Positions 41 through 47,791 of a stretch of 64,000 bases of DNA are shown one piece after another. Made by a program: the position numbers and the translations under genes. The notes below the pieces were generated by a model that had not been told where the DNA came from, did not search any database, and was given only the letters and a program-made list of their open reading frames with translations. Each line of letters starts with the position of its first letter. Positions within the stretch are counted from its first letter, which is position 1. The DNA lies in assembly GCA_025677605.1 (NCBI GenBank), contig GCA_025677605.1_4110.1; one strand, written 5' to 3'. Origin of the DNA: a phage.

Positions 41-3000
41 ATGTACGAAAACTTCCTACAAAGTGTTCGTTATACATATGATCATTTGGGTGTTGAAACT
101 GAAATTTCTGGATTGTACTACTATAACGTAGTTGGTAAAGATAATGAACTACACCTTAAGACCGATTGGGTTCGTTCTAAGGAAGATTCAAAGCAATTCG
201 TTAAACAAACGCCACAAATCGAACACACTGATATGTATCGTGTATTCAATACCGTATTCGAAATGGAAAACTTTAAAAATCCATTAGAAGGTATGTATGC
301 ATATGTTACTGAAGTGGATCGTACCTATCAATATTACAAAGAAGAACGTCAAACCTATATGGATTGGCATGTAATTAGTGGTGAAGGTATTCAAAGTGAA
401 CGTTTCAATCGCACATTTGAATTAGCCCAGAAAATTATTGATGGTAAGAGTACTGAAATCATTGAAATTCAAGTTGATGGTGTGGATGTAACCGATTATA
501 CACGTCATGTATATAATAACAAGGTTCAAAGCATCACTTTAGGTGAAGATGTAGCTCTTAAAGATGAATCAGTGATTCAAATTAGAACATACAGCAGTAC
601 TGAAGTACCAAATAAAGAGTTGGGTGCATATGAAATCCCAATCAACTTACAAAATAACCCATACAACGATAATATTCTTTATATCAACCAAAGTAATTTT
701 ACATTACATTTTAAAGATATCATTCAAAAGAATATCACCAGTGGTTCCGTTGATGATTTCAACGACTACGAAGATCGTTTGTCTAAAGGTTTAGTGGATA
801 ACTCCGTTGGTACTAAGATTATTCAAAACGAAGCATCAATGCTACCGTTAATGGCACATTCTGCAAATGAAGATATTGACCTATTTGAATCTGTATTGTT
901 TATGCAATCCGAATATTTCCGTTTCGTAAACAAGTTCAATACACAAATGATCCGTTTGTACAATGAGAACCCAGCAAACTTCTTAGCTAATAATGCTTCT
1001 AATATTGTTGATGAAATTCTAACAATTATTAATATGGGTCATGATAATACTTTCCCATTCTATTATGATAACGTAGCAAGTACTTCTGGCTTCATTCGTG
1101 CGTTTGTACCACCAACTCCACAGTTTTTGGGTATTTTGAAAGCACACGTTCCAGAAAAAGCAACATTTTTGAATGCTGGTAGTAAGCAAAGCTGTTATAA
1201 CATCAGTCATACAGGTGCAATCACTAAAGCATACCGTGTAATAAACGGTGTTGATAAAATGGATGACGTTATATATGAGTTAGAAAATAGAATTTTCAAT
1301 AGTATTGATGTTATTTTCAAAGATGAAGATTACCAACCTAAGCTAGATGCTTCTGATCTTTTCCCAACTCCGTATTACAGAGATACAGAGTATAATGACG
1401 AAGAGAAAAAGAACTTACTACTACGTGGTTATATTAATTTCATCGCAACCAATGGTATCAGTAACAGTTCACATGATTATGATCCAAATAACTGGATGAC
1501 TTGGAACTATACTGGAACACATTATATGGTTAATGGTCAACAAACACAAATAGCAGCCCGTGGTTCATGGCGAGCAATCTACACTGACCAATTTGGTACA
1601 TATCGCCCAGCAACCCATCCGTGGGAAATGTTTGGTTTCTCCCAACGTCCAGTTTGGTGGAACCAGGAATATGAACCTACCGCAGTTCAAGTTGGCGAAC
1701 GTGATGGTGATGTTGTTTATGTATATGAGGCATTAGTTATCAACGAACAAGGTAACATGGTTCCTAGTGGGTTATGGGACGTTGGTAACGAGAAAGGTGA
1801 TAGCTCAACGGGTACTATCTTGTTTGGTGCACGTAAAGGTCAATATGACAAGTACAAACGTTTTGGTACACAACCATTTAAGATCACTAAAACAGGCAAG
1901 CAGACAGCATCTGGTGTTGATATTTGCGTCATTGAGTACATTGCTCCTGAAGTTTTAGGTCTTGTATATGGTAGTCTAAATCATCGTGCTGAACCGTGGA
2001 CTTATGGTGATATGGGTGATATGGAATTCACTTATATGAACACAGCAATGTTTGCATATGATGAATTATTGATGTTATTCAAAGCTAAACCTGCACAGTT
2101 CACAAACTATTTCTGGGATACCCGAAATAATACATTAAAAACTGTATCTGGTAATGAACCACAGTTTTTATATGGTGATACTCGTTTACGTTTGAACTTT
2201 AATAGTGATACAATCGTACATGGTGAGAATAGTACTCGCGTTATTGGTTATCAAATGATTGTTAGTGATTATTTGATGTATCAAAACAAAAATATTACAA
2301 CTAAGTACGGTGAAATTGTTCGTTCTTCTCATATTAATGTGGGTCATAAACTAGGTGGATTCACTAAAGCTGACCAATTAACATTTACATCAGAAGCAAC
2401 TGGTCTAATTTCACAAGAAAACCAATCTATCGGTTTAGTTCGTTCTAATAATATTAGAAATGAGCAAATGAGTGCAATTAAAATTACTTGGACTGGTAGT
2501 GCTTACCAAATTGATGGTTATGATTTAGTTTCTGCAACATTCAATTATAAATTGCCTGTTAAAAACGGTCATAAAGTATCTTTGAAAGTTGATAATCGTA
2601 ATGTTGTTCATTATAATGAGTGGAAAAATGATGCATCCATTCCTTACGGAACTTTGATGAATACCTTCCAGGAAGTTTACACATTTATTTGTGGTTATGG
2701 TGAGTATCTAAAGCAACATGGTTGGATTTTTGAAGAAGTTGATGAATCTGGTATCCAACAGGACTGGAATACAATTGCAAAAGACTTTTTAATCTGGAGT
2801 CAACAACAATTGAGTACTGGTGAATTCATTTCTTGTACCCCATCAGCAATTAATGCTAAATTTGGTACAGATTTTGGTTCAGTTCAGTCAATTGCACAAA
2901 ATAGTGGTGGTGTTTGGTCATTATTAGATGATTCAAACCAAGGTATACGTCAATTTGAGATTGAAACATCTCGTATTGGTAACATATTCACGGTAAGAAC

Positions 3001-6000
3001 TACTGAAGAATCAAATAAACGCATGGCACTTATTCGTTTAAGTATCAGTTCTTATGAACATGCTGTTATTTTTGATGATCAGACTATTTTCGGTGATTAT
3101 ATCTATGAACCAACCTATGGTGCAGTTCAAGAATTGATTAAATTGTATGGATATATCACTGGTTCATGGTCTGGACGTTTACAAGCTCCTGGATTTATCA
3201 TCCTAGAAGCTGGGACATTACCATCATTTGAAACTTTGGTGTCTAATTTCCAACATTATTATGATAATGAAACCCCAGTTAGTGATGTTCAATTAAATGA
3301 ACTTTCAAACCACTTAATTGGCTATCAGTCTCGTGATTACTTACAACGTATGATCACTAATGAGCCTGGTCGAATTGATTTCTATAAAGGTTTTATTCAT
3401 GATAAAGGCACTAACCAAGTACTAGAAAAAGTATTACGTGTATCTAAATCATATAATACTGATGAGTATAAAGCATTACAAGAATGGGCATTCCGTGTTG
3501 GTTCTTATGGTAACATTGATGGTGTTAAAAATCTTCAATTTAAACTAATTAATAATGAGTTTAAACAACAACCACAAATGATTACGTTCGACCGTTATTC
3601 CGATAAGGTTGAATCTGAGAATGAAATTGTATATTATGGTGAAATTGGTGAAGATTCACGCTGGATTAGTCGTCCAAAAGGTAAATTCTCATTCCCTATG
3701 CGTAATGGGAGAAGTGAGAATATCCAATTACCTAATATTGGACCAGTAACCCTAGATGAAATTGATTATACCACATTAAATTACGAAACTGCAAATCAAG
3801 ACCGCATTAGTTATATGAATAATTCTGGTAAAATCCCAACATCTGTTTGGATGTTCCAAGATATCAATAACGAATGGAATGTGTATGATTTAGTAGATAC
3901 TGGTATTACAATGGTTTCTATTACACCAATTGAAAGTGAAGATCCATATGCTGAGCAATATTGTAAAGTACTATTGTCTGATGATATCCCACTCAATGAT
4001 GGTGATTATTATTATTTTGTTGATGAAACAAACTTTATGCCTGATGCCCTACGTGATGAATGCCAATACTACACTTCTGGACTAGATCCAAAAGTTATGG
4101 TAGTGCCATTTGACACTTCCATTACTATTGACTTTTCAACAGTAGAATCAGCACCACGTTTGTATCGTTATGTTAGTAGATTTAGTACTCAACAAGAACG
4201 CGATGAATATATTGCTAAAAAATATAGTTACAGTGCACCTGAAAGCACTTTGTTTGACCGTCCTACTACGTATGATGAAAGAACAAACATTACTGCATTG
4301 TATTTGAATGTGTTTGACCCAATTAACGGTGTTATTCCTGGGGTTGCAATGCAAGATGTTGATTTCATCTCTCCAGTGGACCCAGCACAGTATAGCAGTA
4401 ACGGTGAACTATTACAAGCATGGGGTGCTGAAAAGGTAGGTAAAGTGTGGTGGAACACTAGCACTGCATTCTATCTGGATTATACCCGTCCAATCTTTGA
4501 TGAGGATGGTAACGTTGATGTAAAAGCAACTAATGAATATAAGCGTTATAATTGGGGTAAATTATTACCACACAGTGTTATTGATGTTCTAGAATGGGTT
4601 AGTTCACCAGTAGAACCATACAACTGGGAAAAATATTGTGCAGAACAAGCCAATAAAAATAAAAACAATACTATGTATCTCCCAAGTGGGATTGCAATGG
4701 ATGAGAACTACAGTTCATCTATGGAATATGATCCAATCACTGATACATATGTAGTTCGTTATTATTTCTGGGTTCGTAATACCATTTATGTTCCACCAAT
4801 GACTACTCGTAGTAAGTCTTGTACTGATATTGCACGTATTATTCAAGATCCAACACAATTGAATGTTCCTTGGTTTGCACCTATTAATGAAAATAGTTTC
4901 ATTCTAAGTAATATGCAATTTGAAGTTAATGATGATACAAGCATTTTGACAATTTCATATAGAAATGACAATATCGAAGTACTGAAGCATGATCAATATC
5001 AACTTTGTAAAGAAGGTGATAGTTATGACTTTAACCCAGATATTTGGAATTCACTATGGAACTCACTAATTGGTCAAGAAACTACTTCAACTGGTGTTGT
5101 AAATGAAATAATTTATCCTAAAGTTGAAACTGGTTTAGGTTCTAATAAAACTTGGTTCCAGAATGTCATTGAAGCTCGTCGTGCGTTTGTTGAAAGTGCA
5201 AATAACTTTTACCGTTCACAGAACATCACAACTAACAGTGTTGTTATGAATGATGTGTTTAATGTGAAAACATTAAAAATGAACCCAAATGATATTACAT
5301 TCCGTGTTCTATCATTTAACAATGAATTGGTAATTGCACCAGAAGATAACCGCTTTAAAGAGAATGATGCAGTATTTGTAAGTTCCATCGGAACTCTACC
5401 AGCACCATTATCTTCTAGTTCAGTATATTTTGTTCACATTGATCCAAATGGATACATTCAATTGATGAACAGCCCAAGTACAGTTGGTAGTACTGTTACA
5501 ATCACTCTAGAAAATAGAGGTGAAGGTCAACACAAGATGATTAAACAAGCTGACTTCATAGAATCACTTGGTACATCTTTGGATATGACCCAGTACTGGA
5601 ATCTGGCTGATTGGTACGATACTGGATACGATAGCAACACTGAATATACACAAGAAGTTAGTTTAGATGACGCAAACACTAAAAATTACCAAATTGGTGA
5701 TATTATCCGTGTAACTGATAGTGATGGTGTTTGGACATTATACATCAAGACTGCATCTCGTAATAATATATACTGGAAAGCTATTGGACGTGAGAATAGT
5801 ACAGTTGAATTGAATTCAATGTTATATTCTGGGTACAATGTTTACAATGATGATGGTTCTTTGAATTCTCATGAGGTTAACGTTCGTAATGCGTTAGCGT
5901 TGTTGAAAAATTCATTCAACTTATATCAAAGTAATATTGTTTTTGATATGGTTAAGTACGTACACACTGAACAAAGTGTTGTTGACTGGGTATTCAAAAC

Positions 6001-8800
6001 CTCATATATCTATATTGTAGGTTTAGAACAATCTCTCGTACAAAACTACTCAAATGACAACTTGATTAATCAAATTGTTGAGTACTTCGAAGAAGTTAAA
6101 CCATACAGAACCAAAATCCGTTCTCAAATAGAACAGAAAACTTCTGATGATGATTTGATTAATGGTATCAGTAATGACCTTGACCCAGATGGCTATATTT
6201 TAGTTGATGGTGTGTGGGTTAAGACTGAAAAAGACATTTGGGATTTAGAATATGCACAATTTAATGACGTAACCCAACGTTGGGAAAAGATTGGTTCACT
6301 ACCAAGTGACTTTATCACACCTAACAGACGATTCCAAGAAATCGACGTTATTATGCATTATGATAATATTCAATGTGACCCGTATGATAGTAATTATACA
6401 ATTGATGAGTTGAAATCAACCAATAGTAAGTATCAATCTAATGCTTCGGATATAGGAAATGATTATGAGTTACAGAGATATGTTTATACATTCCCTGAAT
6501 ATGATAATAATACCTTAATTTCACAGATTGGTATTGAAATGACTACCAAATATTCAGATTTGGATATTAGTAATGGTGTCATTAAAGGAATTGATGCATG
6601 GTATAAAGCCCATTCAACTGATATTGCAATGACTGACCAATTTACTGCTGATTTGGAGCAGGTAACTGCTGATACAAACAACAGTAACATTTTAGAAGAC
6701 GTTAAGAAATATATTCAATACAATACATTGGCAACTCGTGTGAAAATGTTTAAGAATATATCTGATGACATGGTTTCTAATGAGATTGGTTGTCCATTTA
6801 AGGGTACGAACTATAATGATAATCCTAATACTCGCCTACCTTTTGGGTTCAGTGCAAGTAGTGATTACAACTATGGTTATTTTGAGATTAGTATTGAACT
6901 ATATGAAAAATATGTCGATATGATCAAGAAAAATCACCCTGAGTTTACTAATGAAGACCAAGTTCGTAATATACTAGAGATAGAATATGGTGTTTATTGC
7001 TACAAGTATGATACCACATTAAATGACCGTTATTATTCTGATACCGTTCATGTGTTATCTGCAATGCGACAAACATTTAATAAGAATATTCTAGATCATT
7101 ATTATGTTGCTAGAGAAATCTTAAGTAATCGTGCAGTTGATAAGTATGCTTTTGTTATGATGCCAAGGAAATATGTGTATGTTGTGAATGCGGCAGGTGA
7201 ATATCTACCGATTCCTGAAAGTTACAGCATATCTGATTTCATGGAAGACTTATTCATAACAACCGGAGAATCAGTTGTATTGGCTGAAATTGATTTAAAT
7301 GATTTACCACAAGACCAGAATAATCCAATGTATTCTGCATATGTTGAAGTACTGGAAAGTATCAATACTGCAAAATATTTCAATGATATGAATGCATTCG
7401 ATAACTTGGCATTGGAATCACAAACCAAATCCATTAAATGGGAAGTTAAAGATAGTGAGATTGATCCTTATATCATCGACATTTCTGAACTAAACCCATC
7501 AGGAAGAACAATGGCACAATTACGTTTCACTGTTGATGGTTACGGTTTCGATGAAGTTGCTCAAGAGCAATTAAAAGACACAAGTAGATTCCAGATTGAG
7601 GGTATGATCGTACAAAACCCTTACAATATGTCAGAAGCAGTTGTAAGTATTCCATCATATGATATTGTCATTGAGAATATGGGTAAAGATGTGTTCAAAG
7701 AATCTGAAAAATACTTCTTCCCAATTTCAGAAATTAAAACAATTACTGAAATCAAAGTTCACGATGAAGGTTTGAAAGATGGTGATAAGGTTATGATTTT
7801 CACGCCAGATGGTGAAGATTATGTACGATTCCAAGACGGTAACTGGGTAACTATATTAAGTGCTAGTAAAATCCAATCCTCTAAAAAACCAAAACTATAC
7901 ACAGTACGTGTATTGGGTAATGGTAACGTAGAGTTGGTTGATAGTAATGGTGTAGTGTTAATGTTTGATAGTATAACTAAGCGTGAAAGTAATGAGCGTT
8001 TTTATACATTATCAATGAACTTAGTTAGAATCCGCACTTTCCAAGACCCTGAGTTTGATGACAATGGACTTAAACTATATGAAAATAATCGTCATTACAG
8101 TATACATGCATTGAACTATGAAGTATTCTATGACGAAACATTATATGGTGGTAAATTCAATGATGGTATCACACCTGATGAAATTGATTTGTGGTTAGTT
8201 TCCAATGAGATTTTTGAAGTTGATGGTATTACAATTGATAATGGTTACAATCAGCCAATCTCTGGTAAAGGTGTCCTGGGTGAACTAGTACGAGCTAAAA
8301 TGACTGATGGTATTGAAATCACTGTATTTGAATACGATGTTGATGTTATTCAACCAGTACTAAGTTATGATCGCGTGTGGCAGTATGCACAACCTGTGGT
8401 CAATAACACGTTCATCAAAGAAGTAGGATGTAGTGTAATTAACATTACAACCGTTGAAGATGAGGCAATCACTTATGTTGCTAAACCTCGTTCAATAAGC
8501 CCATATATCATTACTGATTCAGTACTGTCAGGTGCTGCGGCACAGAATGATGATATTATTGTGGTTGGATATGAGAAGGTTCAGGTAAGAAACACTGACC
8601 GTCTATTACGTGGTGTCATGTATAGTGCGGAACATAATTTTACTAAAGGAACGTCTTATAGCTTTAATGGATTGAACTTGGGGAGCATTGATAAGTTTAC
8701 TCAATATCAAAACTTCTATCCACCAATTCCATTAGATACATTCAGAAATGGATTGTCAATTACTGGAACTGATATCGAAAATCTATTGAATATTCAATAA
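41..8800 (+). CDS. Giant protein (2919 aa), function unknown; possibly virion-associated
   Basis: Single uninterrupted 8.76-kb ORF; overlapping antisense ORFs are short. No catalytic motif recognised by eye. Followed by a bidirectional terminator. Confidence 0.85.
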   Translation: MYENFLQSVRYTYDHLGVETEISGLYYYNVVGKDNELHLKTDWVRSKEDSKQFVKQTPQIEHTDMYRVFNTVFEMENFKNPLEGMYAYVTEVDRTYQYYKEERQTYMDWHVISGEGIQSERFNRTFELAQKIIDGKSTEIIEIQVDGVDVTDYTRHVYNNKVQSITLGEDVALKDESVIQIRTYSSTEVPNKELGAYEIPINLQNNPYNDNILYINQSNFTLHFKDIIQKNITSGSVDDFNDYEDRLSKGLVDNSVGTKIIQNEASMLPLMAHSANEDIDLFESVLFMQSEYFRFVNKFNTQMIRLYNENPANFLANNASNIVDEILTIINMGHDNTFPFYYDNVASTSGFIRAFVPPTPQFLGILKAHVPEKATFLNAGSKQSCYNISHTGAITKAYRVINGVDKMDDVIYELENRIFNSIDVIFKDEDYQPKLDASDLFPTPYYRDTEYNDEEKKNLLLRGYINFIATNGISNSSHDYDPNNWMTWNYTGTHYMVNGQQTQIAARGSWRAIYTDQFGTYRPATHPWEMFGFSQRPVWWNQEYEPTAVQVGERDGDVVYVYEALVINEQGNMVPSGLWDVGNEKGDSSTGTILFGARKGQYDKYKRFGTQPFKITKTGKQTASGVDICVIEYIAPEVLGLVYGSLNHRAEPWTYGDMGDMEFTYMNTAMFAYDELLMLFKAKPAQFTNYFWDTRNNTLKTVSGNEPQFLYGDTRLRLNFNSDTIVHGENSTRVIGYQMIVSDYLMYQNKNITTKYGEIVRSSHINVGHKLGGFTKADQLTFTSEATGLISQENQSIGLVRSNNIRNEQMSAIKITWTGSAYQIDGYDLVSATFNYKLPVKNGHKVSLKVDNRNVVHYNEWKNDASIPYGTLMNTFQEVYTFICGYGEYLKQHGWIFEEVDESGIQQDWNTIAKDFLIWSQQQLSTGEFISCTPSAINAKFGTDFGSVQSIAQNSGGVWSLLDDSNQGIRQFEIETSRIGNIFTVRTTEESNKRMALIRLSISSYEHAVIFDDQTIFGDYIYEPTYGAVQELIKLYGYITGSWSGRLQAPGFIILEAGTLPSFETLVSNFQHYYDNETPVSDVQLNELSNHLIGYQSRDYLQRMITNEPGRIDFYKGFIHDKGTNQVLEKVLRVSKSYNTDEYKALQEWAFRVGSYGNIDGVKNLQFKLINNEFKQQPQMITFDRYSDKVESENEIVYYGEIGEDSRWISRPKGKFSFPMRNGRSENIQLPNIGPVTLDEIDYTTLNYETANQDRISYMNNSGKIPTSVWMFQDINNEWNVYDLVDTGITMVSITPIESEDPYAEQYCKVLLSDDIPLNDGDYYYFVDETNFMPDALRDECQYYTSGLDPKVMVVPFDTSITIDFSTVESAPRLYRYVSRFSTQQERDEYIAKKYSYSAPESTLFDRPTTYDERTNITALYLNVFDPINGVIPGVAMQDVDFISPVDPAQYSSNGELLQAWGAEKVGKVWWNTSTAFYLDYTRPIFDEDGNVDVKATNEYKRYNWGKLLPHSVIDVLEWVSSPVEPYNWEKYCAEQANKNKNNTMYLPSGIAMDENYSSSMEYDPITDTYVVRYYFWVRNTIYVPPMTTRSKSCTDIARIIQDPTQLNVPWFAPINENSFILSNMQFEVNDDTSILTISYRNDNIEVLKHDQYQLCKEGDSYDFNPDIWNSLWNSLIGQETTSTGVVNEIIYPKVETGLGSNKTWFQNVIEARRAFVESANNFYRSQNITTNSVVMNDVFNVKTLKMNPNDITFRVLSFNNELVIAPEDNRFKENDAVFVSSIGTLPAPLSSSSVYFVHIDPNGYIQLMNSPSTVGSTVTITLENRGEGQHKMIKQADFIESLGTSLDMTQYWNLADWYDTGYDSNTEYTQEVSLDDANTKNYQIGDIIRVTDSDGVWTLYIKTASRNNIYWKAIGRENSTVELNSMLYSGYNVYNDDGSLNSHEVNVRNALALLKNSFNLYQSNIVFDMVKYVHTEQSVVDWVFKTSYIYIVGLEQSLVQNYSNDNLINQIVEYFEEVKPYRTKIRSQIEQKTSDDDLINGISNDLDPDGYILVDGVWVKTEKDIWDLEYAQFNDVTQRWEKIGSLPSDFITPNRRFQEIDVIMHYDNIQCDPYDSNYTIDELKSTNSKYQSNASDIGNDYELQRYVYTFPEYDNNTLISQIGIEMTTKYSDLDISNGVIKGIDAWYKAHSTDIAMTDQFTADLEQVTADTNNSNILEDVKKYIQYNTLATRVKMFKNISDDMVSNEIGCPFKGTNYNDNPNTRLPFGFSASSDYNYGYFEISIELYEKYVDMIKKNHPEFTNEDQVRNILEIEYGVYCYKYDTTLNDRYYSDTVHVLSAMRQTFNKNILDHYYVAREILSNRAVDKYAFVMMPRKYVYVVNAAGEYLPIPESYSISDFMEDLFITTGESVVLAEIDLNDLPQDQNNPMYSAYVEVLESINTAKYFNDMNAFDNLALESQTKSIKWEVKDSEIDPYIIDISELNPSGRTMAQLRFTVDGYGFDEVAQEQLKDTSRFQIEGMIVQNPYNMSEAVVSIPSYDIVIENMGKDVFKESEKYFFPISEIKTITEIKVHDEGLKDGDKVMIFTPDGEDYVRFQDGNWVTILSASKIQSSKKPKLYTVRVLGNGNVELVDSNGVVLMFDSITKRESNERFYTLSMNLVRIRTFQDPEFDDNGLKLYENNRHYSIHALNYEVFYDETLYGGKFNDGITPDEIDLWLVSNEIFEVDGITIDNGYNQPISGKGVLGELVRAKMTDGIEITVFEYDVDVIQPVLSYDRVWQYAQPVVNNTFIKEVGCSVINITTVEDEAITYVAKPRSISPYIITDSVLSGAAAQNDDIIVVGYEKVQVRNTDRLLRGVMYSAEHNFTKGTSYSFNGLNLGSIDKFTQYQNFYPPIPLDTFRNGLSITGTDIENLLNIQ

Positions 8801-40021: not shown

Positions 40022-42135
<2,114 letters not shown>

Positions 42136-42146
42136 AGTACTTCTCC

Positions 42147-42923
42147 TTAAAATCCTATATTACCGAATACACGGTCAATGATATCTAGTCCTTGATTAAC
42201 TTTTTCTGGTAGTAATGAATTAATGCGAGTACTATACATTTCTTCAATATTATCAAATTGAATACAATTATCAGGCTTAATTGTAATATCCATAGTTACT
42301 GGTGCACTAGAGCTATATTCCAATGTATCGTAACTGATATTGGTGATGATACACCCTGTAAGAACAAAGTATTCCATTACACCAGCACTGTTATAGTTTG
42401 AGCCACCAATGAACTGATCTACTGCATTAACTAACCCACCATTATTTGTCACAGCGGTTGCAGCAGAAACAGCCGTATTTCTTGCCAAATCTTCAATACT
42501 ATCATCTGTGTTACGTCCATTTAGCATTTGAATAACCATACCAAATTTATACGAACCATAGTCTTGTTCACTTCTGGAGGTAATACGTCTTTGAAAATCT
42601 AATTGTTTTTGTAACTGTCTAGACAATGCTTTAGCACTTTCATTGCCAATTGAATCACGAATTGTTAGTGTGATGGGTTCCCAGTTATGATTACCAATAT
42701 ATGTAGTATTGGTAGTAAAATGGTTCAATTTATGAGTACTGAATGTTACTGTTGGTCTATCAACTTTATCAACATCTAATGCGATGTGATCACGCTCATC
42801 AATATCAGTACCGAAATTATAAACAATAACTCTAAATTTGTACTTCGCTTTAGGTTGTAGCATTGTTTTATTTCTTCCTGATGGTAATGGAACGCCATAT
42901 TTACTAATCATGTTTTTTGCCAT
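42147..42923 (-). CDS. Tail tube-like protein, paralog B
   Basis: Shares N-terminal block with 43011-43694 (YGVPL...KAKYKFRVI, SIGNESAKAL); downstream of sheath gene. Tube function inferred from synteny. Confidence 0.7.
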   Translation of the reverse strand: MAKNMISKYGVPLPSGRNKTMLQPKAKYKFRVIVYNFGTDIDERDHIALDVDKVDRPTVTFSTHKLNHFTTNTTYIGNHNWEPITLTIRDSIGNESAKALSRQLQKQLDFQRRITSRSEQDYGSYKFGMVIQMLNGRNTDDSIEDLARNTAVSAATAVTNNGGLVNAVDQFIGGSNYNSAGVMEYFVLTGCIITNISYDTLEYSSSAPVTMDITIKPDNCIQFDNIEEMYSTRINSLLPEKVNQGLDIIDRVFGNIGF

Positions 42924-42964
42924 AGCAACCTCTTTTAATTTAAGGTATTATACTTTATTTAGCA

Positions 42965-42996
42965 TAAAAAAAGCCCCGAAATAGTTTCGAGGCTTT
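42965..42996 (-). terminator. Intrinsic terminator between the two tube paralogs
   Basis: Minus-strand RNA forms AGCCUCGAAA...UUUCGGGGCU hairpin (one G-U) followed by UUUUUUU. Confidence 0.65.
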
Positions 42997-43010
42997 AGAA
43001 GTATCTTTAA

Positions 43011-43694
43011 TTAATCAAAGAAGTTTGTATCAGGTAGTGTAGTACTACTAATGTTGGTTTGTGCACCACTAATAGAAGATGCAGTACTTGGATTACCGAA
43101 ACCAGTAACTTCATCACCGAATGCTTCACCGTTTGGACCCAACTTAGCACAACCATCTGGTTGAACAGTCATAGTAATAACTTGTGCTTCGCTTGAAGAA
43201 TAATCCCAATCACCAAAGTTGCTGGATTCAATAAAGCAACCCTGACAAACCCAAGTACTTAGAGTACCTTCAAAAAGGTTTGTTGCATTTTCGCTATTAG
43301 AACCATCTAGTTCTTGAATCCACATTTCAAATTTAAACTGGGAATCAGTCATACGTGATTCTTGACTATAGTAGTTGAATTCTTTACGCATTTGGTTGTA
43401 AAGTGCTTTTGCTGAAGCATTACCAACTGAATCACGGAAAGCAACTTCAATCGCATCCCAAGTATATTTGCCTTTATAGTGTGCGGAACTGTTATAACTA
43501 TGAACAGTTACGTTTTCATGCGATACAGATACTGCACCAACAGTGTTTGTATCTAGTGTAATCATGTTGCCATCATCATTGGCACCAAAACCAAAGAAAA
43601 TTACACGGAATTTATATTTTGCTTTTGGTTGTTTCATTGAAATACGACCACCACCAGCAAGCGGAACGCCATATCGATCTAGCATAGTAGCCAT
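43011..43694 (-). CDS. Tail tube-like protein, paralog A
   Basis: 227-aa ORF directly downstream of sheath; paralogous to 42147-42923; perfect TATAAATA about 40 nt upstream. Confidence 0.7.
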   Translation of the reverse strand: MATMLDRYGVPLAGGGRISMKQPKAKYKFRVIFFGFGANDDGNMITLDTNTVGAVSVSHENVTVHSYNSSAHYKGKYTWDAIEVAFRDSVGNASAKALYNQMRKEFNYYSQESRMTDSQFKFEMWIQELDGSNSENATNLFEGTLSTWVCQGCFIESSNFGDWDYSSSEAQVITMTVQPDGCAKLGPNGEAFGDEVTGFGNPSTASSISGAQTNISSTTLPDTNFFD

Positions 43695-43731
43695 TAATTA
43701 ATTCTCCTATTAGGAAATGAGATCTTTATAT

Positions 43732-43739
43732 TATTTATA
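43732..43739 (-). promoter_or_regulatory. T4-type late-promoter-like box TATAAATA
   Basis: Perfect TATAAATA on the minus strand about 40 nt upstream of the tube-like start codon. Confidence 0.45.
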
Positions 43740-43840
43740 AAAATTAACATACTTTATGTAGTACTTAATGATATGTTTTATCTATAGGGAACCAATCCAT
43801 ATTAATACAATATGTGTACTGGAATTCACCAGTATATAGC

Positions 43841-44011
43841 TTAAACCTTACACCGAACTGACCATCTGCCATTTGTATAAGCAGAAAAATCACTCACAAT
43901 ACCCACATCTTTTAATACTTCCATTAAGGCTTCTATAAGATTTTGGGCTTCTTCTTGTGATTCTGAATTAAAGGCCAATTCTTGCAGGATACTTTTAATT
44001 ATTTCGTCCAT
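43841..44011 (-). CDS. Small hypothetical ORF (56 aa), not in the supplied track
   Basis: ATG at 44011 with AGGTGAGAGGG RBS; translates MDEIIKSILQELAFNSES...; between sheath terminator and tube promoter. Confidence 0.35.
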   Translation of the reverse strand: MDEIIKSILQELAFNSESQEEAQNLIEALMEVLKDVGIVSDFSAYTNGRWSVRCKV

Positions 44012-44057
44012 ATATCCCTCTCACCTTACTGAATATATGGTATTTAATTTAAACAAT

Positions 44058-44084
44058 AAAAAAGGGAACCATATGGTTCCCTTA
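44058..44084 (-). terminator. Intrinsic terminator downstream of the sheath gene
   Basis: GGGAACC-ATAT-GGTTCCC hairpin followed by U6 on the minus-strand transcript. Confidence 0.75.
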
Positions 44085-44089
44085 GTGTG

Positions 44090-46753
44090 TTATTGAGTCT
44101 TTTCAATACGAATCGGTACGTAAATGAAGTTGATAGACTTAGTAGGTTGGATTGCGATATCCATCCAAAGTTCGTTACGGTCAATACGCTCGGAGGTGTT
44201 GTTACTTTCATCACAAACAACTGCGAAGTTATATAGACCTTGTTGTTGAACGATTTCAGCTAGGAAGCTATTAACTACACCACTGAATTCCTGACGAGTA
44301 CTTGGAGTATTCAAACGGAATAGGAATGGTTCAGAAATAATTTCTAGTTGACGACGAATATAAACAACTAAACGTGCAACGTTAACACGGCTTAATGCGG
44401 AAGTTTGGTTAGGAGATAGTGTTTTATCACCATATACTAGCAAACCACGATTTGGACGCATTGCAATTGGGTTAATGTTGTTGGTGTACATTACATCACG
44501 TTGACCTTGGTTATAAACTACTGGCTGATATTCACCTTCATCATTGATGAAGCCAACAGATGCAGCGTTTGTTACAACACCACGAGTAGTACCAGCAGGT
44601 GGATACCATACATAACTTACGCTGTCGCTGTATGCATAGGTACGCATTGCAATAGTACTGCCAGGAACTGCAACTTCTTCACCATCAACGTTAGTACTTA
44701 AGCACCAGCCCATATATTGAGCAGCATAATCATATGCAGTAGTACGACCAACATCACCATTACTTGGTGCGTTATTTGCGTTAGTTGCCCATTGTTGAAC
44801 AGCATTACCGTTACCAGTTGGGTTCAAACGTGCTGGAACATCAGTTACGATGAAAGCAGTTTCTTTACGGTCGGTGTTTAGGGTCACACACTCATCTAAA
44901 CATTCAACATAACCAGGAACAGAAATTAGGTTAAAGTCAATGAATTCAGAACGGATATCATCGTTTCCAACGATAACTGCATTTAGTGCTTCTACAACCA
45001 ATTGGCGTTGAGCAGCACGACCAAACAAGCCATTCCCATCAAGACCAACACCACTGACAACATGCCAAAATCCATCGATCATTTTCTTAACCACACCTTC
45101 AGTATTTCCAAGGTCGATTGCGAGCATACCGTTTTGGTATAGAGCAGCCGCTGGAACTTGTTCAGGGAAGTTAAAGTCTTTGAAGATCATACCGTTTAGT
45201 GTACTTTGATCAGTACTGTCAAGTTTAACCCACTCACCATTAACATTACGATAGAAATCGTAGCCATCAATACCTTGTGATTTAGGAGAAACCCAGATTG
45301 TACGGTCAGCAGCAGGTTCGTCAACTTGCACATATTTGTTAGCTTCGTCAACTTCAACCCATTTGTCATTAGCAACATCAGCTAGATACATGGTAACATT
45401 TAGATTATCAGAATTACTGAAATCATACCATAGAGTACCTTCTTTAGCGATACTACGTGGAACGTTACTATCAACACGGAAATTGTTAACGTTAATCAAA
45501 GCATAGTTATTACTATCAACAGTTAGTTTTGCAAATTCATCTTCATCAAATAGTACACTACCACTTTGTGCAGTTTTGAAACTATAACCTTTAGAACTAT
45601 TAATTACTAGGCCACCATTACTTTCTCTTTTAAATTTAAAGCCATCATTGATTAGTTCAGATGAAGCATTTAGATTGTCAAGAATAGTTTGGGTGTTGAT
45701 AACACCACCTAGTGCAACTGCTAGTACTTTAACAGTTTTGGTCAAATAAGAGAAAGTCAAGTAAGAATCTTGGTCTGCTTGAACAACTACAGTTTCACCA
45801 ACTGGAATCGCTGGAGCACTTAGTGCTGGTAGTTTTGCACTTTGAATATAGAAAGAGAAACTCTTACTATCCCAGTCAAAACGAGTAGCGATGAAGCTGT
45901 TATTTAGAACACCACTTTTGGATTCAATTTCTTGGAAACTGTTACCAGTGAATGCTTGTACTTGATTCCAAACTTGAGTTAGGGATGCATAACGTTTAAT
46001 AACAAAACGAGTACCGAAGTAATTAGCACCATTTTGAGTGTAACCATCACGAATCCAGATATTACCTTTCTCAACTGTATTACCTACTGGTACTTTGTTG
46101 ATTGGTGAAAGGTAAGTTTCAACTTGAACTAGACCAGATGCTGCACGTTTGTACATTAGCATTTGACCATTGCTTGGCTTATAACGTAGTACTAGATCGT
46201 CAACGTTAATACCAACTAGGCTAACATCACTAACTTCTTCAGCACTAACAATAGTTACTGGTTTTAGTTGCCAGTCATAGAAACTGGTTGGTGAATCCAC
46301 TTTAGAAACATATGCTTCAACTTGTGATTGAGCAACATCTAGCCACAATGTACCGTTTGGTACTGGACCAGTTGGAGCAGTAGCAGAAGGTGATAGTTGT
46401 GCCAAGTCGATATCTGCACGTACAACATAAGCACGGTTAGTAATACCAAGGTAAGAATAAGCAGCATGTAGGCCGTATTCGTTTAGTTCGTCACCTTGAA
46501 CAACTGAACCATTACTTGATTGAAAAATCGGTGTGCCGTAAGTGTCTAGTGAACTTTTCTGAGAAGTTAGAAGTTGCAACTTACCAGCATTTGCTTTTGT
46601 GGTTCCAGCAGCGATTGTGTTGCTACCTGGTACTAATTTATCTTCTGCGGTAGCAATGATGAATAGTGGTACTGTTCCAGGTGCGGAAGCAGTGCTCATA
46701 CTTTCATCAGTAACTGAAATGGAAACGCCAGGCGATAGGAGTTCTCCTGCCAT
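44090..46753 (-). CDS. Tail sheath protein
   Basis: 887-aa ORF; N-terminal LLSPGV and NRAYVVRADID blocks and hydrophobic C-terminal region as in contractile sheath proteins; AATAAATA about 50 nt upstream. Confidence 0.88.
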   Translation of the reverse strand: MAGELLSPGVSISVTDESMSTASAPGTVPLFIIATAEDKLVPGSNTIAAGTTKANAGKLQLLTSQKSSLDTYGTPIFQSSNGSVVQGDELNEYGLHAAYSYLGITNRAYVVRADIDLAQLSPSATAPTGPVPNGTLWLDVAQSQVEAYVSKVDSPTSFYDWQLKPVTIVSAEEVSDVSLVGINVDDLVLRYKPSNGQMLMYKRAASGLVQVETYLSPINKVPVGNTVEKGNIWIRDGYTQNGANYFGTRFVIKRYASLTQVWNQVQAFTGNSFQEIESKSGVLNNSFIATRFDWDSKSFSFYIQSAKLPALSAPAIPVGETVVVQADQDSYLTFSYLTKTVKVLAVALGGVINTQTILDNLNASSELINDGFKFKRESNGGLVINSSKGYSFKTAQSGSVLFDEDEFAKLTVDSNNYALINVNNFRVDSNVPRSIAKEGTLWYDFSNSDNLNVTMYLADVANDKWVEVDEANKYVQVDEPAADRTIWVSPKSQGIDGYDFYRNVNGEWVKLDSTDQSTLNGMIFKDFNFPEQVPAAALYQNGMLAIDLGNTEGVVKKMIDGFWHVVSGVGLDGNGLFGRAAQRQLVVEALNAVIVGNDDIRSEFIDFNLISVPGYVECLDECVTLNTDRKETAFIVTDVPARLNPTGNGNAVQQWATNANNAPSNGDVGRTTAYDYAAQYMGWCLSTNVDGEEVAVPGSTIAMRTYAYSDSVSYVWYPPAGTTRGVVTNAASVGFINDEGEYQPVVYNQGQRDVMYTNNINPIAMRPNRGLLVYGDKTLSPNQTSALSRVNVARLVVYIRRQLEIISEPFLFRLNTPSTRQEFSGVVNSFLAEIVQQQGLYNFAVVCDESNNTSERIDRNELWMDIAIQPTKSINFIYVPIRIEKTQ

Positions 46754-46847
46754 ATTAAATCCTCCAAAAATAATTGGTTATTCGAATATATTTCGTATAG
46801 TCTTATTTATTGGTGGATTTAATTGACTTGAGCTAATTGATTTTTTA

Positions 46848-47474
46848 TCAGTTTTTCGTATAAATAATATCCAGTGCTTTGTTTTCTAGGTCTTTTATAG
46901 TTCCATTATTCTTGATAATATAATGTGGGTTGTTAATACCAATCCATGCCCATTCAGATTCATGTACTGATTCCAGTTCAACTGGTTTCATTTGGATATC
47001 ACCTTTATTGTATGATGCTGCTAGACCATACCAGAATGGTAAATTGCGTTGAACTTCAATGATGATACCGTTATTTTCACGAATCATTTTCAATTCATTT
47101 GGAAAACGACAATCAGTAATGATAATGTTACCTTCTATGTCCATCATAGAACGTTCTAAACTGAATACCCAAATGTCATTATGCAAATAACGACGAACTA
47201 CATTAGTACCGTAATTTTGCAGTACCCAACGTGGTGAAACATCATCACGTCCTAATTTATTACACCAGTACTGATCCGGTTGTTCACGAATAGCACGACC
47301 TTCTTTAGTAGTTCCTTCTAGCATTTCCCTGTCCCAGCCAAAAATAGCTGCAACTGAATCTTTCAGGTTCTTTGCAAACGACATACGGGTATATCCATTA
47401 TCGATGAATGTTTTAGCGTATGTATCTTTACCACTTCCTATTGAGCCATTGATGGCTACGATTTTTCTTTCCAT
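46848..47474 (-). CDS. Deoxynucleoside monophosphate kinase-like protein
   Basis: P-loop INGSIGSGKDT resembling the T4 gp1 N-terminus; ~200 aa. Confidence 0.7.
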   Translation of the reverse strand: MERKIVAINGSIGSGKDTYAKTFIDNGYTRMSFAKNLKDSVAAIFGWDREMLEGTTKEGRAIREQPDQYWCNKLGRDDVSPRWVLQNYGTNVVRRYLHNDIWVFSLERSMMDIEGNIIITDCRFPNELKMIRENNGIIIEVQRNLPFWYGLAASYNKGDIQMKPVELESVHESEWAWIGINNPHYIIKNNGTIKDLENKALDIIYTKN

Positions 47475-47476
47475 AG

Positions 47477-47791
47477 TTACACTTCCTTCATATATTCATC
47501 ACCAACTAAGCTTCTAACTATATCAATAATAGTTTCATTACCGTTGTATACTGACACATATACAACATAAAATGTTTTTCCATTATCATCCCTGCATATA
47601 CTTGCCCATGCGTTAATTACATCCCTGGTGAATACATCAACTAATGCATTTTTGATAAATCGCCAGTACTGTTCTGATTCGAAATAATTGTCGCTTAATT
47701 TTCCACATCTGAATTTTGCATATTCAATTGTCATTATATCACCGTATATGAAAAAAGACCCCAACATGGAGTCTTTTTTTATTTTAACCAA
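47477..47791 (-). CDS. Hypothetical protein, start uncertain
   Basis: The annotated 5' end contains a terminator-like hairpin (about 47755-47776) and a GTGATATAATGA element overlapping an internal Met codon (47734-47732); true start probably internal. Confidence 0.45.
   Translation of the reverse strand: MVKIKKDSMLGSFFIYGDIMTIEYAKFRCGKLSDNYFESEQYWRFIKNALVDVFTRDVINAWASICRDDNGKTFYVVYVSVYNGNETIIDIVRSLVGDEYMKEV

Follow-up and report, generated by a model that had tools for sequence, protein, structure and literature searches.

A cluster of three tube-fold genes with conserved terminator-like hairpins and late-promoter-like motifs in a Rak2-like jumbo phage

Three paralogous genes for proteins with the tail-tube fold, here called tube1, tube2 and tube3, lie in tandem downstream of the tail sheath gene in the 64-kb stretch of phage DNA that was analysed (the window). 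Orthologs of their products are present in virions, and a hairpin with a T-tract and a late-promoter-like motif, both conserved among relatives, separate tube1 from tube2. The reading that we favour, and hold to be reasonably probable, is a T4-like late tail-tube module in which tube1 would encode the major tube protein and end in a terminator, followed by a unit of tube2, tube3 and a gp4-like gene that would provide rings on the baseplate side. The locus is the Rak2-like tail-tube gene cluster, which is ordinary, largely known and has been annotated before.

Results

Gene order at the locus

The window belongs to a Rak2-like jumbo myophage and shares 99.3% identity with Escherichia phage A4. 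The genes lie on the minus strand in the order sheath, tube1, tube2 and tube3 (Table 1); this order was kept in all relatives examined, and a tube gene located 3' of the sheath gene was also found in PA5oct and in a marine contig. The sheath gene is labelled tail sheath in A4, 121Q and other phages and the gp4-like gene is labelled head completion in A4 and others. The cluster is flanked by genes for dNMP kinase (gp1-like) and head completion (gp4-like), with a gp13-like neck gene just upstream. Tube3 begins 11 nt past the tube2 stop codon, and the start of the gp4-like gene overlaps the stop of tube3. The spacer between sheath and tube1 was variable, with lengths of 105 to 1806 nt among the relatives; it measured 387-395 nt and contained a small ORF in the Asteriusvirus phages examined and was typically 105-135 nt elsewhere. 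The 56-aa ORF in this spacer was poorly conserved, with no more than weak similarity in EcMJ and 121Q.

Table 1. Positions in the window of genes and predicted signals of the sheath-tube region, listed from the sheath gene towards the gp4-like gene.
Feature	Position	Strand	Basis or remark
ATAAATA, late-promoter-like motif of the sheath gene	46804..46810	-	57 nt upstream of sheath ATG; Porf_204 in CBB
Tail sheath gene, 887 aa	44090..46753	-	Pfam Phage_sheath_1C 1.6e-14; PHROG 10581 tail sheath E=0
Predicted intrinsic terminator after the sheath gene, 9-bp stem and T6	44056..44083	-	terminator scan; -13.9 kcal/mol
Small ORF in the sheath-tube1 spacer, 56 aa	43841..44011	-	A4_548, hypothetical
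TATAAATA, exact T4 late-promoter consensus, tube1	43732..43739	-	38 nt upstream of tube1 ATG; Porf_205 in CBB
tube1, 227 aa, 24.9 kDa, probable major tail-tube subunit	43011..43694	-	PHROG 4542 1.3e-84
Predicted intrinsic terminator after tube1, 12-bp stem, 3-nt loop, T7	42966..42996	-	terminator scan, folding, conservation
TGCTAAATA, variant late-promoter-like motif, tube2	42956..42964	-	33 nt upstream of tube2 ATG; Porf_206 in CBB
tube2, 258 aa, diverged paralog, probable low-copy ring protein	42147..42923	-	PHROG 4542 3e-78
tube3, 364 aa, remote tube-fold paralog with N- and C-terminal extensions	41041..42135	-	
gp4-like head completion gene, TnsA-like nuclease fold	40586..41041	-	Pfam PF08722 5e-16; PHROG 218 head closure

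Three paralogs with a tube fold

A preliminary description of this DNA had proposed two tandem paralogous tube-like genes, and both ORFs were recovered with exactly the limits given there. Tube1 and tube2 were aligned by BLASTP with 68/233 identities (29%, E=3e-37) and both matched PHROG 4542 'tail tube protein', tube1 over its full length (profile positions 1-214 of 214), which together with the tube folds and the virion data below bears out that proposal. The likeness had been described as a shared N-terminal block followed by divergence; the homology stands but is not confined to the N-terminus, given that it extends through the whole core as far as residues ~199 (tube1) and ~237 (tube2). 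What sets tube2 apart from tube1 is an insertion of ~32 aa, conserved throughout the tube2 family, and a C-terminal tail unrelated to that of tube1. The cluster is also larger than the two genes described, since a third tube-fold paralog, tube3, had been overlooked; it matched PHROG 4542 at only 4e-7 and its own family, PHROG 13438, at 1e-221.

With 1529 representative clusters (E<=1e-3) the tube family is of considerable size, but Pfam does not cover it. Neither tube1, tube2 nor tube3 had a Pfam-A match at E<=1, so that no gp19-type tube domain was assigned by Pfam, and no precomputed Pfam domain was present on any homolog of the tube proteins. Searches against all PDB sequences, by phmmer with the three proteins and by hmmsearch with a profile of the tube1 and tube2 family, gave nothing meaningful. 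When the three family profiles were compared by hhalign with the single sequences of T4 gp19, gp3, gp48, gp54 and gp2 the probabilities were <=1.5%, and T4-type roles can therefore not be assigned by sequence. An HMM scan for a fourth tube-fold paralog in the window and the next 50 kb of phage A4 (114 kb together) found none; the added 50 kb comprise the baseplate, portal and capsid region.

Structure models were made for tube1 and tube3, and tube2 was placed by its sequence homology. All significant structural neighbours of the two AlphaFold models were tube or Hcp proteins (T4 gp19, gp3 and gp54, Pvc1/5), and both models contain the tube-type beta-sandwich with a long beta-hairpin of the Hcp-fold superfamily. 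For the AF2 core of tube1 the Foldseek values were 1e-9 for T4 gp3, 2.9e-9 for the KP1 tube and 2.5e-8 for T4 gp19. The tube-like character suggested in the preliminary description is thus upheld by structure comparison for tube1 and tube3.

RaK2 gp106w and gp107w had been proposed as tube proteins in 2013. These proteins belong to PHROG 9326 ('virion structural protein, head and packaging'), resemble none of the tube families at the profile level and have no homolog in the window; the proposal was rejected on the basis of this family evidence.

Orthologs in virions

Published mass spectrometry (MS) detected RaK2 gp042/gp043, phAPEC6 gp275c/274c/273c and CBB_205/207 in virions. The tube2 ortholog was found in virions of RaK2, GAP32 and phAPEC6 and was undetected in the CBB analysis, so that orthologs of both tube1 and tube2 are known virion proteins in RaK2 and phAPEC6. 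The phAPEC6 data contained 2 peptides of tube1, 3 of tube2 and 7 of tube3, and the low count of tube1 is partly explained by the fact that this protein is poor in K and R and yields only 7 tryptic peptides of usable size. As they stand, the peptide counts give no sign of an abundance of tube1 and count against tube1 as the major subunit.

Placement of tube2 and tube3

The probable role of tube2 and tube3 is that of low-copy rings at one end of the tube. By analogy with T4 gp54/gp48, phiKZ gp88/gp182 and Pvc5/Pvc7 they would most likely be adaptor or initiator rings on the baseplate side that seed the polymerisation of tube1.

The synteny of the locus, with its gp1-like and gp4-like flanks and gp13-like neighbour, points towards the neck and against an initiator placement.

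A neck-side position is the essence of the alternative that tube2 (or tube3) is a tube terminator, an analog of T4 gp3 that caps the finished tube, which we regard as possible but doubtful. In T4 the genes run 1 (dNMP kinase), 3 (tube terminator), 2 and 4 (head completion), and the paralogs in the window lie in the corresponding place between gp1-like and gp4-like genes, next to a gp13-like neck gene; judging from the sequence they may be co-transcribed or translationally coupled with the gp4-like gene. T4 gp3, itself of the tube fold, was the best Foldseek match of both the tube1 and the tube3 model, but the scores of gp3, gp54 and gp19 were practically tied. If no fourth tube-fold paralog is encoded in the 114-kb structural region, one of the three may serve as terminator; against this, a tube terminator without sequence similarity would escape HMM searches, and many myophages have a tube terminator without a tube fold. 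Tube2 was, moreover, not found in the two outgroups examined, PA5oct and a marine relative, which need a terminator too. The same absence indicates that tube2 is no universally required ring.

Hairpins and late-promoter motifs

The hairpin and U-tract that had been reported between tube1 and tube2 were confirmed. The stem-loop (42996..42970) starts 14 nt beyond the tube1 stop codon, contains 5 G-C pairs and is followed by seven T at 42972..42966; the hairpin alone had a folding energy of -14.5 kcal/mol, and the whole spacer had z=-4.06 compared with shuffled sequences. Hairpin and T-tract were present after the tube gene in 12/12 relatives examined, which include enterobacterial, Vibrio, Pseudomonas and marine phages, with differing stem sequences and double compensatory changes in 4/7 consensus pairs, and the hairpin was followed by 5-7 T in 10/12 relatives, the exceptions being Vibrio (T5) and PA5oct (interrupted tract). 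Its counterpart was predicted as terminator Torf205 in the CBB paper, and another is annotated in phage Munch. A permissive Rfam search of positions 40500-47500 for a known RNA family at the hairpin gave only sub-threshold matches (Phe_leader 34.9 bits, gathering threshold 55), and those centred on the hairpin are terminator look-alikes.

A predicted terminator of the same type, which was absent from the preliminary description, follows the sheath gene (44083..44062). It corresponds to Torf204 in CBB and to a terminator that is annotated in Munch.

Late-promoter-like motifs precede the sheath, tube1 and tube2 genes and their types were consistent across relatives, with ATAAATA at sheath and tube1 and GCTAAATA at tube2. 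ATAAATA was found upstream of the sheath gene in 6/6 relatives whose fetched locus covers that region and at the tube1 promoter position in 11/11. The tube1 element TATAAATA occurred twice in 64 kb compared with 8.5 expected occurrences, and the tube2 element TGCTAAATA occurred once in the window. At the tube2 position (G)CTAAATA was invariant in the 9 enterobacterial Rak2-like relatives, where the GCTAAATA motif is separated from the preceding T-tract by <=3 nt and from the tube2 ATG downstream by about 33-40 nt, and CTAAATA was also present in the marine relative. TAAATA had fewer copies in the window (32) than any of the other 14 hexamers of composition A4T2 (69-108), and 47% of its copies were located 30-65 nt upstream of a start on the same strand, compared with 2-14% for the other hexamers. 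An element that is placed at the promoter position and avoided elsewhere is what characterises T4-type late promoters. In the CBB paper ATAAATA is the late motif, with CTAAATA variants within the late-promoter set, and CBB_244 is described as a gp55-like sigma factor, gp33 and gp45 homologs being reported absent; a 'sigma factor for late transcription' (A4_588) is annotated in A4 outside the window. A scan for sigma-70 promoters (20 matches versus 33 in shuffled sequences) was uninformative for the late region.

The preliminary description held that the terminator attenuates transcription and thereby sets the ratio of the two proteins. The conserved hairpin agrees with this but accounts for part of the layout only, since a conserved GCTAAATA motif follows the T-tract; a late promoter of its own is therefore probable for tube2, and read-through would not be needed. 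As read from the sequence, tube2, tube3 and the gp4-like gene probably form a separate transcription unit that is not fed by read-through alone. Pure attenuation, in which a single late transcript starting at the promoter of tube1 or of the sheath gene passes a leaky hairpin, the read-through fraction sets the ratio and GCTAAATA is no promoter, appears unlikely. The hairpin and T-tract are strong and conserved, GCTAAATA mismatches TATAAATA at the first two consensus positions, and the PA5oct gene behind the tube terminator lacks TAAATA, which suggests read-through or another signal in that phage. However, GCTAAATA is kept at a fixed place in the 9 enterobacterial relatives despite diverged flanks, CTAAATA recurs in the marine relative, TAAATA clusters at the promoter position and is strongly avoided outside it, and Porf_206 and CTAAATA variants belong to the published late-promoter set of CBB.

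In a different scheme, to which we give little credence, tube2 would be neither an initiator nor a terminator of the classical kind but a neofunctionalised paralog of the tube gene, whose conserved 32-aa insertion and novel C-terminus form an additional, specialised ring and whose output is set by a purposely weakened late promoter behind the tube1 terminator. Such a ring could possibly be a second adaptor layer for the very large Rak2-type baseplate or an anchoring ring for the annular 'hairy' fibres that occur at fixed heights on the tails of phAPEC6 and CBB.

That the hairpin mainly stabilises the mRNA 3' end or blocks processing, and so prolongs the half-life of tube1 mRNA, is very unlikely. 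The T4 hairpins after genes 18 and 19 lack clear U-tracts and a stabiliser would have the same outward effect on the protein ratio, but the T-tract that follows the hairpin in 10/12 relatives is the canonical signature of an intrinsic terminator, and the roles of terminator and stabiliser are not exclusive.

The main tube subunit

It is tube1 that most likely forms the bulk of the tube, as suggested by its conservation, the PA5oct match and the predicted monocistronic layout with an exact TATAAATA and a terminator of its own. It was the most conserved paralog in 9/9 phage comparisons and tube2 the least conserved of the three; the identities of tube1, tube2 and tube3 were 95, 84 and 89% to 121Q and 74, 59 and 67% to GAP32. 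PA5oct has one short tube protein only, which was closer to tube1 (36.6%, E=6e-44) than to tube2 (26%, E=3e-25). In an unrooted neighbour-joining (NJ) tree of tube1, tube2 and the PA5oct and marine tubes, tube1 had short branches and tube2 a long stem; the three-way split in this tree could not be resolved and the duplication can therefore not be dated. The suggestion that one protein forms the tube and the other initiates or terminates it is thus plausible, with tube1 proposed as the tube protein and tube2 at one or the other end of the tube. It is highly improbable that tube1 and tube2 are both bulk subunits of a mixed or alternating tube, or that tube2 is the major one: the two are homologous over the whole core and both were detected in virions with similar, low peptide counts, but tube2 is the fastest evolving, has an insertion and a different C-terminus, a non-consensus promoter motif and a predicted operon shared with low-copy genes, and was missing from the CBB MS data, while relatives with the same sheath family make their tails from a single short tube protein.

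Discussion

The proposed module would separate products that are needed in very different amounts. Roughly 150 copies of tube1 would be required, corresponding to about 25 rings of 6, and these would be made from a short monocistronic late transcript, with the TATAAATA promoter and the ribosome-binding site AGGAG ahead of the tube1 gene and a strong intrinsic terminator behind it; the sheath gene would be packaged in the same way with a promoter and a terminator of its own. The terminator would keep the heavy transcription of sheath and tube1 out of the downstream genes, and the non-consensus late promoter GCTAAATA, 3 nt past the T-tract, would start the unit of tube2, tube3, the gp4-like gene and onward. 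Tube2 and tube3 would be present in about 6 copies each as special rings at the tube end. In this reading tube3 is ancient in the phage clade, and tube2 is a fast-evolving paralog of the tube gene.

The closest systems are those of published Rak2-like phages, in which the same three genes occur in the same order between the sheath gene and the gp4-like gene with 59-95% amino acid identity (RaK2 ORF042-044, GAP32_199-201, CBB_205-207, 121Q gp552-554, Munch gp231-233 and phAPEC6 gp275c-273c). No essential difference was seen between these relatives and the window; the same terminators were already predicted or annotated in CBB and Munch and late-promoter motifs were predicted in CBB (Torf205, Porf_206). 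RefSeq and a number of GenBank records list the trio as 'tail tube protein (x3)', whereas in phage A4 the three genes are merely called 'structural protein'.

The resemblance to T4 lies in a sheath gene followed by a tube gene, in gp1-like and gp4-like flanks as at T4 gene 3, and in the 18/19 and 19/20 spacers, where a hairpin is directly followed by a TATAAATA late promoter. T4 also has a set of tube-fold paralogs in which one is the bulk subunit and others form 6-copy rings, a copy number that for the window would follow by analogy: gp19 (tube), gp54 and gp48 (baseplate-tube junction rings) and gp3 (tube terminator). In contrast to the window, where three paralogs were detected in tandem, the four of T4 are dispersed over three loci, and the T4 hairpins lack a long T-tract; no sequence similarity was detectable between the tube proteins of the window and the tube-fold proteins of T4. 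The extracellular contractile injection systems PVC and AFP likewise combine a tube protein (Pvc1/Afp1) with tube-like baseplate rings (Pvc5/Afp5 and Pvc7/Afp7), but their sequence families differ from those of the window, neither tube2 nor tube3 showed a LysM-type domain, and the window genes lie in a phage late operon with gp55-type promoter motifs. In phiKZ, gp30 is the tube, gp88 the tube initiator and gp182 a spacer ring (PMC13250141). This phage is also a jumbo myophage in which two 6-copy rings link hub and tube and the initiator resembles the tube core; phiKZ and phiKp24 differ from the window in a larger tube family (290 aa), weaker structural matches (TM 0.3-0.4) and genes that are not in tandem.

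Nothing in the locus would surprise a specialist, and the gain is mainly one of annotation. In A4-like genomes the label tube-fold protein is safe for all three genes, and tube1 may be put forward as the major tube subunit, which corrects the earlier suggestion of RaK2 gp106w/gp107w as the tube. With more than 1500 representative clusters lacking a Pfam model, a curated model would improve the annotation of jumbo phages. The layout of a terminator followed by a promoter illustrates, in a clean and conserved form, the way in which structural genes of high and low copy number are kept apart in late regions of the T4 type, and the tube1/tube2 pair may be a convenient test case for strength variants of gp55-type promoters (TATAAATA versus GCTAAATA).

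Gene order and composition of the tube region

All genes in the tube part of the window lie on the minus strand. Over 5.8 kb the window is 99.3% identical in DNA sequence to Escherichia phage A4 (Asteriusvirus), the identity of the region to 121Q, PBECO4 and phAPEC6 is about 83%, and the region is common to sixty phage records. The three genes that follow the sheath gene, here called tube1, tube2 and tube3, are all labelled 'structural protein' in A4 and 'tail tube protein (x3)' in RefSeq 121Q, PBECO4 and GAP32 and several recent records. A sequence identical to tube2 also has an NCBI entry, named 'hypothetical protein ABV23_RS01985 [Escherichia coli]' and located on a contig of 357,761 bp; this E. 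coli assembly appears to include a whole jumbo-phage genome.

Features of the tube region and further open reading frames in the window
Feature	Position	Strand	Basis
Tail sheath gene, 887 aa	46753..44090	-	Pfam Phage_sheath_1C, PHROG 10581
Intrinsic terminator 3' of sheath gene	44083..44062 plus T6	-	terminator scan
Small ORF, 56 aa, between sheath terminator and tube1	43841-44011	-	
tube1, 227 aa	43694..43011	-	PHROG 4542
Hairpin plus T7 between tube1 and tube2	42996..42966	-	
TGCTAAATA, 3 nt past T-run, 33 nt before tube2 ATG	42964..42956	-	
tube2, 258 aa	42923..42147	-	PHROG 4542
tube3, 364 aa, 11 nt past tube2	42135..41041	-	PHROG 13438
gp4-like head-completion gene, overlaps tube3 stop	41041..40586	-	Pfam TnsA-like N, PHROG 218
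HNH endonuclease, 488 aa	32553-34019	-	PHROG 1314
Very large ORF, >2900 aa, off window start	41-8800	+	
Very large ORF, 1847 aa	21253-26796	+	

The sheath-tube1 spacer (43695-44089) is an insertion hot spot. Most genera have 105-135 nt here; the Asteriusvirus phages examined have 387-395 nt, including the poorly conserved 56-aa ORF, Yen9-04 has 537 nt with a 134-aa ORF, and PA5oct has 1806 nt that carry a Hef-like homing endonuclease. RaK2 (ORF039) and PA5oct both encode homing endonucleases close to the sheath gene, and the HNH endonuclease of the window, located amid a run of virion structural genes, is possibly a homing endonuclease as well. The gp4-like protein matches the Pfam Tn7 TnsA-like endonuclease N-terminal domain (5e-16), and PA5oct and a marine contig likewise have its gene beside the tube3-like one. 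The ORF running off the window start matches A4_580 'structural protein', the neighbour of a baseplate wedge gene, and is probably the counterpart of RaK2 gp070w (382 kDa).

Three tandem paralogs with a tube fold

The preliminary description regarded tube1 and tube2 as tandem paralogs, and this was borne out by 29% identity over 233 columns (E=3e-37) and by end-to-end matches of both to PHROG 4542 'tail tube protein' (1e-84 and 3e-78, respectively). The sharing is not limited to an N-terminal block followed by divergence, as had been proposed, since conserved columns extend across the whole core in a 49-sequence alignment, in which tube2 is distinguished by a family-wide insertion of about 32 aa (T-A-x-T-N-N-x-G-L-V-N-A-x-D...) and a different C-terminal tail. 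The third paralog, tube3, had been overlooked; it matches PHROG 13438 'tail tube' (1e-221) and, weakly, PHROG 4542, and profile-profile comparison links its family over about 175 columns to those of tube1 (94% probability, E=1.3e-7) and tube2 (95%, E=1.9e-8). It carries about 50 additional N-terminal residues and a Gly/Ala/Val/Ser-rich C-terminal extension of about 90 residues that is predicted to be disordered, and its orthologs in PA5oct and the marine jumbo phage are 406-492 aa long.

Searches of Pfam and of PDB sequences gave no match for tube1, tube2 or tube3, not even when a profile of the family was used. An AlphaFold2 model of tube1, built from a 49-sequence alignment (mean pLDDT 70.8; 80-90 in the core blocks, with disordered termini), was compared with known structures, and its PDB matches were exclusively tube-fold proteins. 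The best were T4 gp3 (1e-9), the Klebsiella phage KP1 tube (2.9e-9, TM 0.78), T4 gp19 (2.5e-8) and T4 gp54, followed at lower rank by the cyanophage A-1(L), PVC and AFP tubes. Modelling thus establishes a tube fold for tube1 and tube3, and homology extends it to tube2; the match scores do not discriminate between bulk subunit, initiator and terminator.

Orthologs are present in virions

The tube1 and tube2 orthologs of RaK2, encoded directly after sheath gp041, are gp042 and gp043, and both were detected by MS/MS (24.95 kDa, 5 peptides and 28.72 kDa, 3 peptides; PMC3622015 Table S3). In phAPEC6, MS detected gp275c (25.07 kDa, 2 peptides), gp274c (28.76 kDa, 3) and gp273c (40.42 kDa, 7), which adjoin sheath gp277c (PMC7247149) and were assigned to tube1, tube2 and tube3, respectively, by mass and gene order, not alignment. 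CBB_205 and CBB_207 were detected in CBB virions, and GAP32_199 and GAP32_200 are recorded as detected in the supplementary table of the same paper (PMC5259590). Given that orthologs occur in virions and the models have a tube fold, the suggestion that these genes are tube-like withstands both checks set for it. The RaK2 authors had in 2013 not been able to identify the tube and put forward gp106w/gp107w. These abundant, mutually related virion proteins have no homolog in the window and fall in PHROG 9326 'virion structural protein' (head and packaging), an unrelated family without profile similarity to the tube families.

Predicted terminator and late-promoter motifs between tube1 and tube2

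The hairpin noted between tube1 and tube2 was confirmed: a stem of 12 bp closes a 3-nt loop, and seven T follow. Alone it folds at -14.5 kcal/mol, and the whole spacer has z=-4.06 relative to shuffles. An equivalent hairpin plus T-tract lies 3' of the tube gene in all 12 relatives compared (EcMJ, 121Q, RaK2, Munch, GAP32, CBB, XbC2, Hallingskeid, Yen9-04, Vibrio 2.275.O, PA5oct and the marine contig); the stem sequences differ, and 4 of the 7 consensus pairs show double compensatory changes. A terminator after tube1 was already predicted before this analysis: the CBB paper gives Torf204 and Torf205 (GCCCTGGACTTGTCTAGGGCTTTTTTATTGCT, -14.7 kcal/mol) (PMC5259590), and the Munch GenBank record has terminators annotated 3' of the sheath gene and the tube1 ortholog. 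Rfam matches at 42964-43041 (-), on the terminator, were sub-threshold only (Phe_leader, 34.9 bits with a gathering threshold of 55, and the Bacillus sRNA ncr1575) and are best read as generic terminator resemblance.

The hairpin had been proposed as an attenuator setting the tube1:tube2 ratio. While the hairpin itself stands, this account is incomplete, as it omits the TGCTAAATA motif just past the T-run. (G)CTAAATA is invariant at this position in nine enterobacterial relatives despite diverged flanks, and CTAAATA follows the terminator in the marine contig too. In the CBB paper an ATAAATA motif, similar to the T4 late promoter TATAAATA, was reported upstream of 35 structural genes, and Porf_204, Porf_205 (ATAAATACATTAAA) and Porf_206 (CTAAATATAATATA) were listed as promoters together with a gp55-like sigma factor (PMC5259590); the A4 annotation likewise includes a late sigma factor. 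ATAAATA precedes the sheath gene and tube1 in all relatives for which the upstream region is available, often as the full TATAAATA at tube1, and the tube2 motif in these relatives is always the C variant. The same arrangement, a hairpin directly followed by TATAAATA, is found in the T4 gene 18/19 and 19/20 spacers.

In the window TATAAATA occurs twice (8.5 expected), one copy being 38 nt upstream of tube1, and TAAATA is the rarest of the 15 A4T2 hexamers (32 copies versus 69-108). Among TAAATA copies 47% precede a start codon on the same strand by 30-65 nt, compared with 2-14% for the other A4T2 hexamers. General avoidance with concentration at one position is the pattern that a functional promoter element predicts, and these counts suggest that spurious late promoters are avoided throughout the genome. 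PA5oct has the hairpin and no TAAATA before its tube3-like gene, which may be fed by read-through.

The likely bulk tube paralog

Four sequence-based observations point to tube1 as the bulk tube protein. Firstly, tube1 was the most conserved paralog in 9 of 9 phage comparisons, identities for tube1, tube2 and tube3 being 95, 84 and 89% to 121Q and 74, 59 and 67% to GAP32. Secondly, PA5oct has only one short tube protein detectable by tblastn, which lacks the tube2 insertion and resembles tube1 (36.6%, E=6e-44) more than tube2 (26.2%, E=3e-25); the next gene is the 492-aa tube3 ortholog (E=9e-19; hhalign 99.7%). Thirdly, the order in the 327-kb marine contig is gp15, gp13, dNMP kinase, sheath, a 209-aa tube gene, an unrelated 147-aa gene, a 406-aa tube3 ortholog, a 124-aa gene and gp4. 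Since both outgroups examined thus have one tube and one tube3-like gene, tube2 would be an addition. Finally, branches within the tube1 clade of a neighbour-joining tree are short and tube2 sits on a long stem; no root can be placed in the three-way split that these two form with PA5oct plus the marine contig.

The phAPEC6 tail has 25 sheath rings (PMC7247149), from which we infer about 150 tube subunits versus about 6 copies of a ring protein. The low MS peptide counts of tube1 are partly explained by its sequence, which has 16 K/R residues and yields only 7 tryptic peptides of usable size.

Discussion

Public records and papers already contain the phage and the three genes with their 'tail tube' label, as well as the terminator, the motifs of late-promoter type and the detection in virions. 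The tube family, with 1529 representative clusters at E<=1e-3, mostly of 195-225 aa, has no Pfam model, which is an annotation gap and not a discovery. No structure of a Rak2-like tail that would assign roles to the three paralogs was found in the PDB or the searched literature.

One possibility is that tube2 or tube3 is the tube terminator on the neck side. Gene order speaks for this reading: T4 has gene 1 (dNMP kinase), then gene 3 (a tube terminator with a tube fold), gene 2 and gene 4, and the paralogs in the window sit between a gp1-like and a gp4-like gene, a gp13-like neck gene being located close upstream. Furthermore, HMM searches of 114 kb of structural region detect only three tube-fold paralogs, compared with four in T4, so tube2 or tube3 could be the terminator. 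We consider this less likely and favour the baseplate side, on the model of T4 and phiKZ, in which two rings (gp48 and gp54; gp88 and gp182) lie between hub and tube, and likewise of Pvc5/Pvc7.

The tube2 C-terminus (42147-42170) reads ...VFGNIGF and was compared with that of tube3 (41041-41070); the 492-aa PA5oct ortholog has GLGNVLGDI internally, and tube1 has nothing alike. The motif common to tube2 and tube3 may be a docking motif of the minor paralogs, the match being short enough to arise by chance.

Paralogy, tube fold, conserved hairpin and motifs, and orthologs in virions are observations; the activity of promoter and terminator, the copy numbers and the places of the proteins in the particle belong to the proposal that follows. 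In this arrangement, the sheath gene and tube1 would each be expressed as a short late transcript running from a consensus-type late promoter to an intrinsic terminator, a layout suited to proteins of which about 150 copies are required. Past tube1, the terminator would insulate the next unit, tube2-tube3-gp4-like and onward, which would depend on a variant promoter of its own, probably a weaker one, together with any read-through. Within this unit tube2 and tube3 are separated by an 11-nt spacer with AAGGAG and the tube3 stop overlaps the gp4-like start, a close coupling that suits a similar low stoichiometry of tube2 and tube3. Most likely, these two proteins form special rings at one end of the tube and, given a placement on the baseplate side, the tube-derived paralog tube2 would be the ring layer touching tube1.
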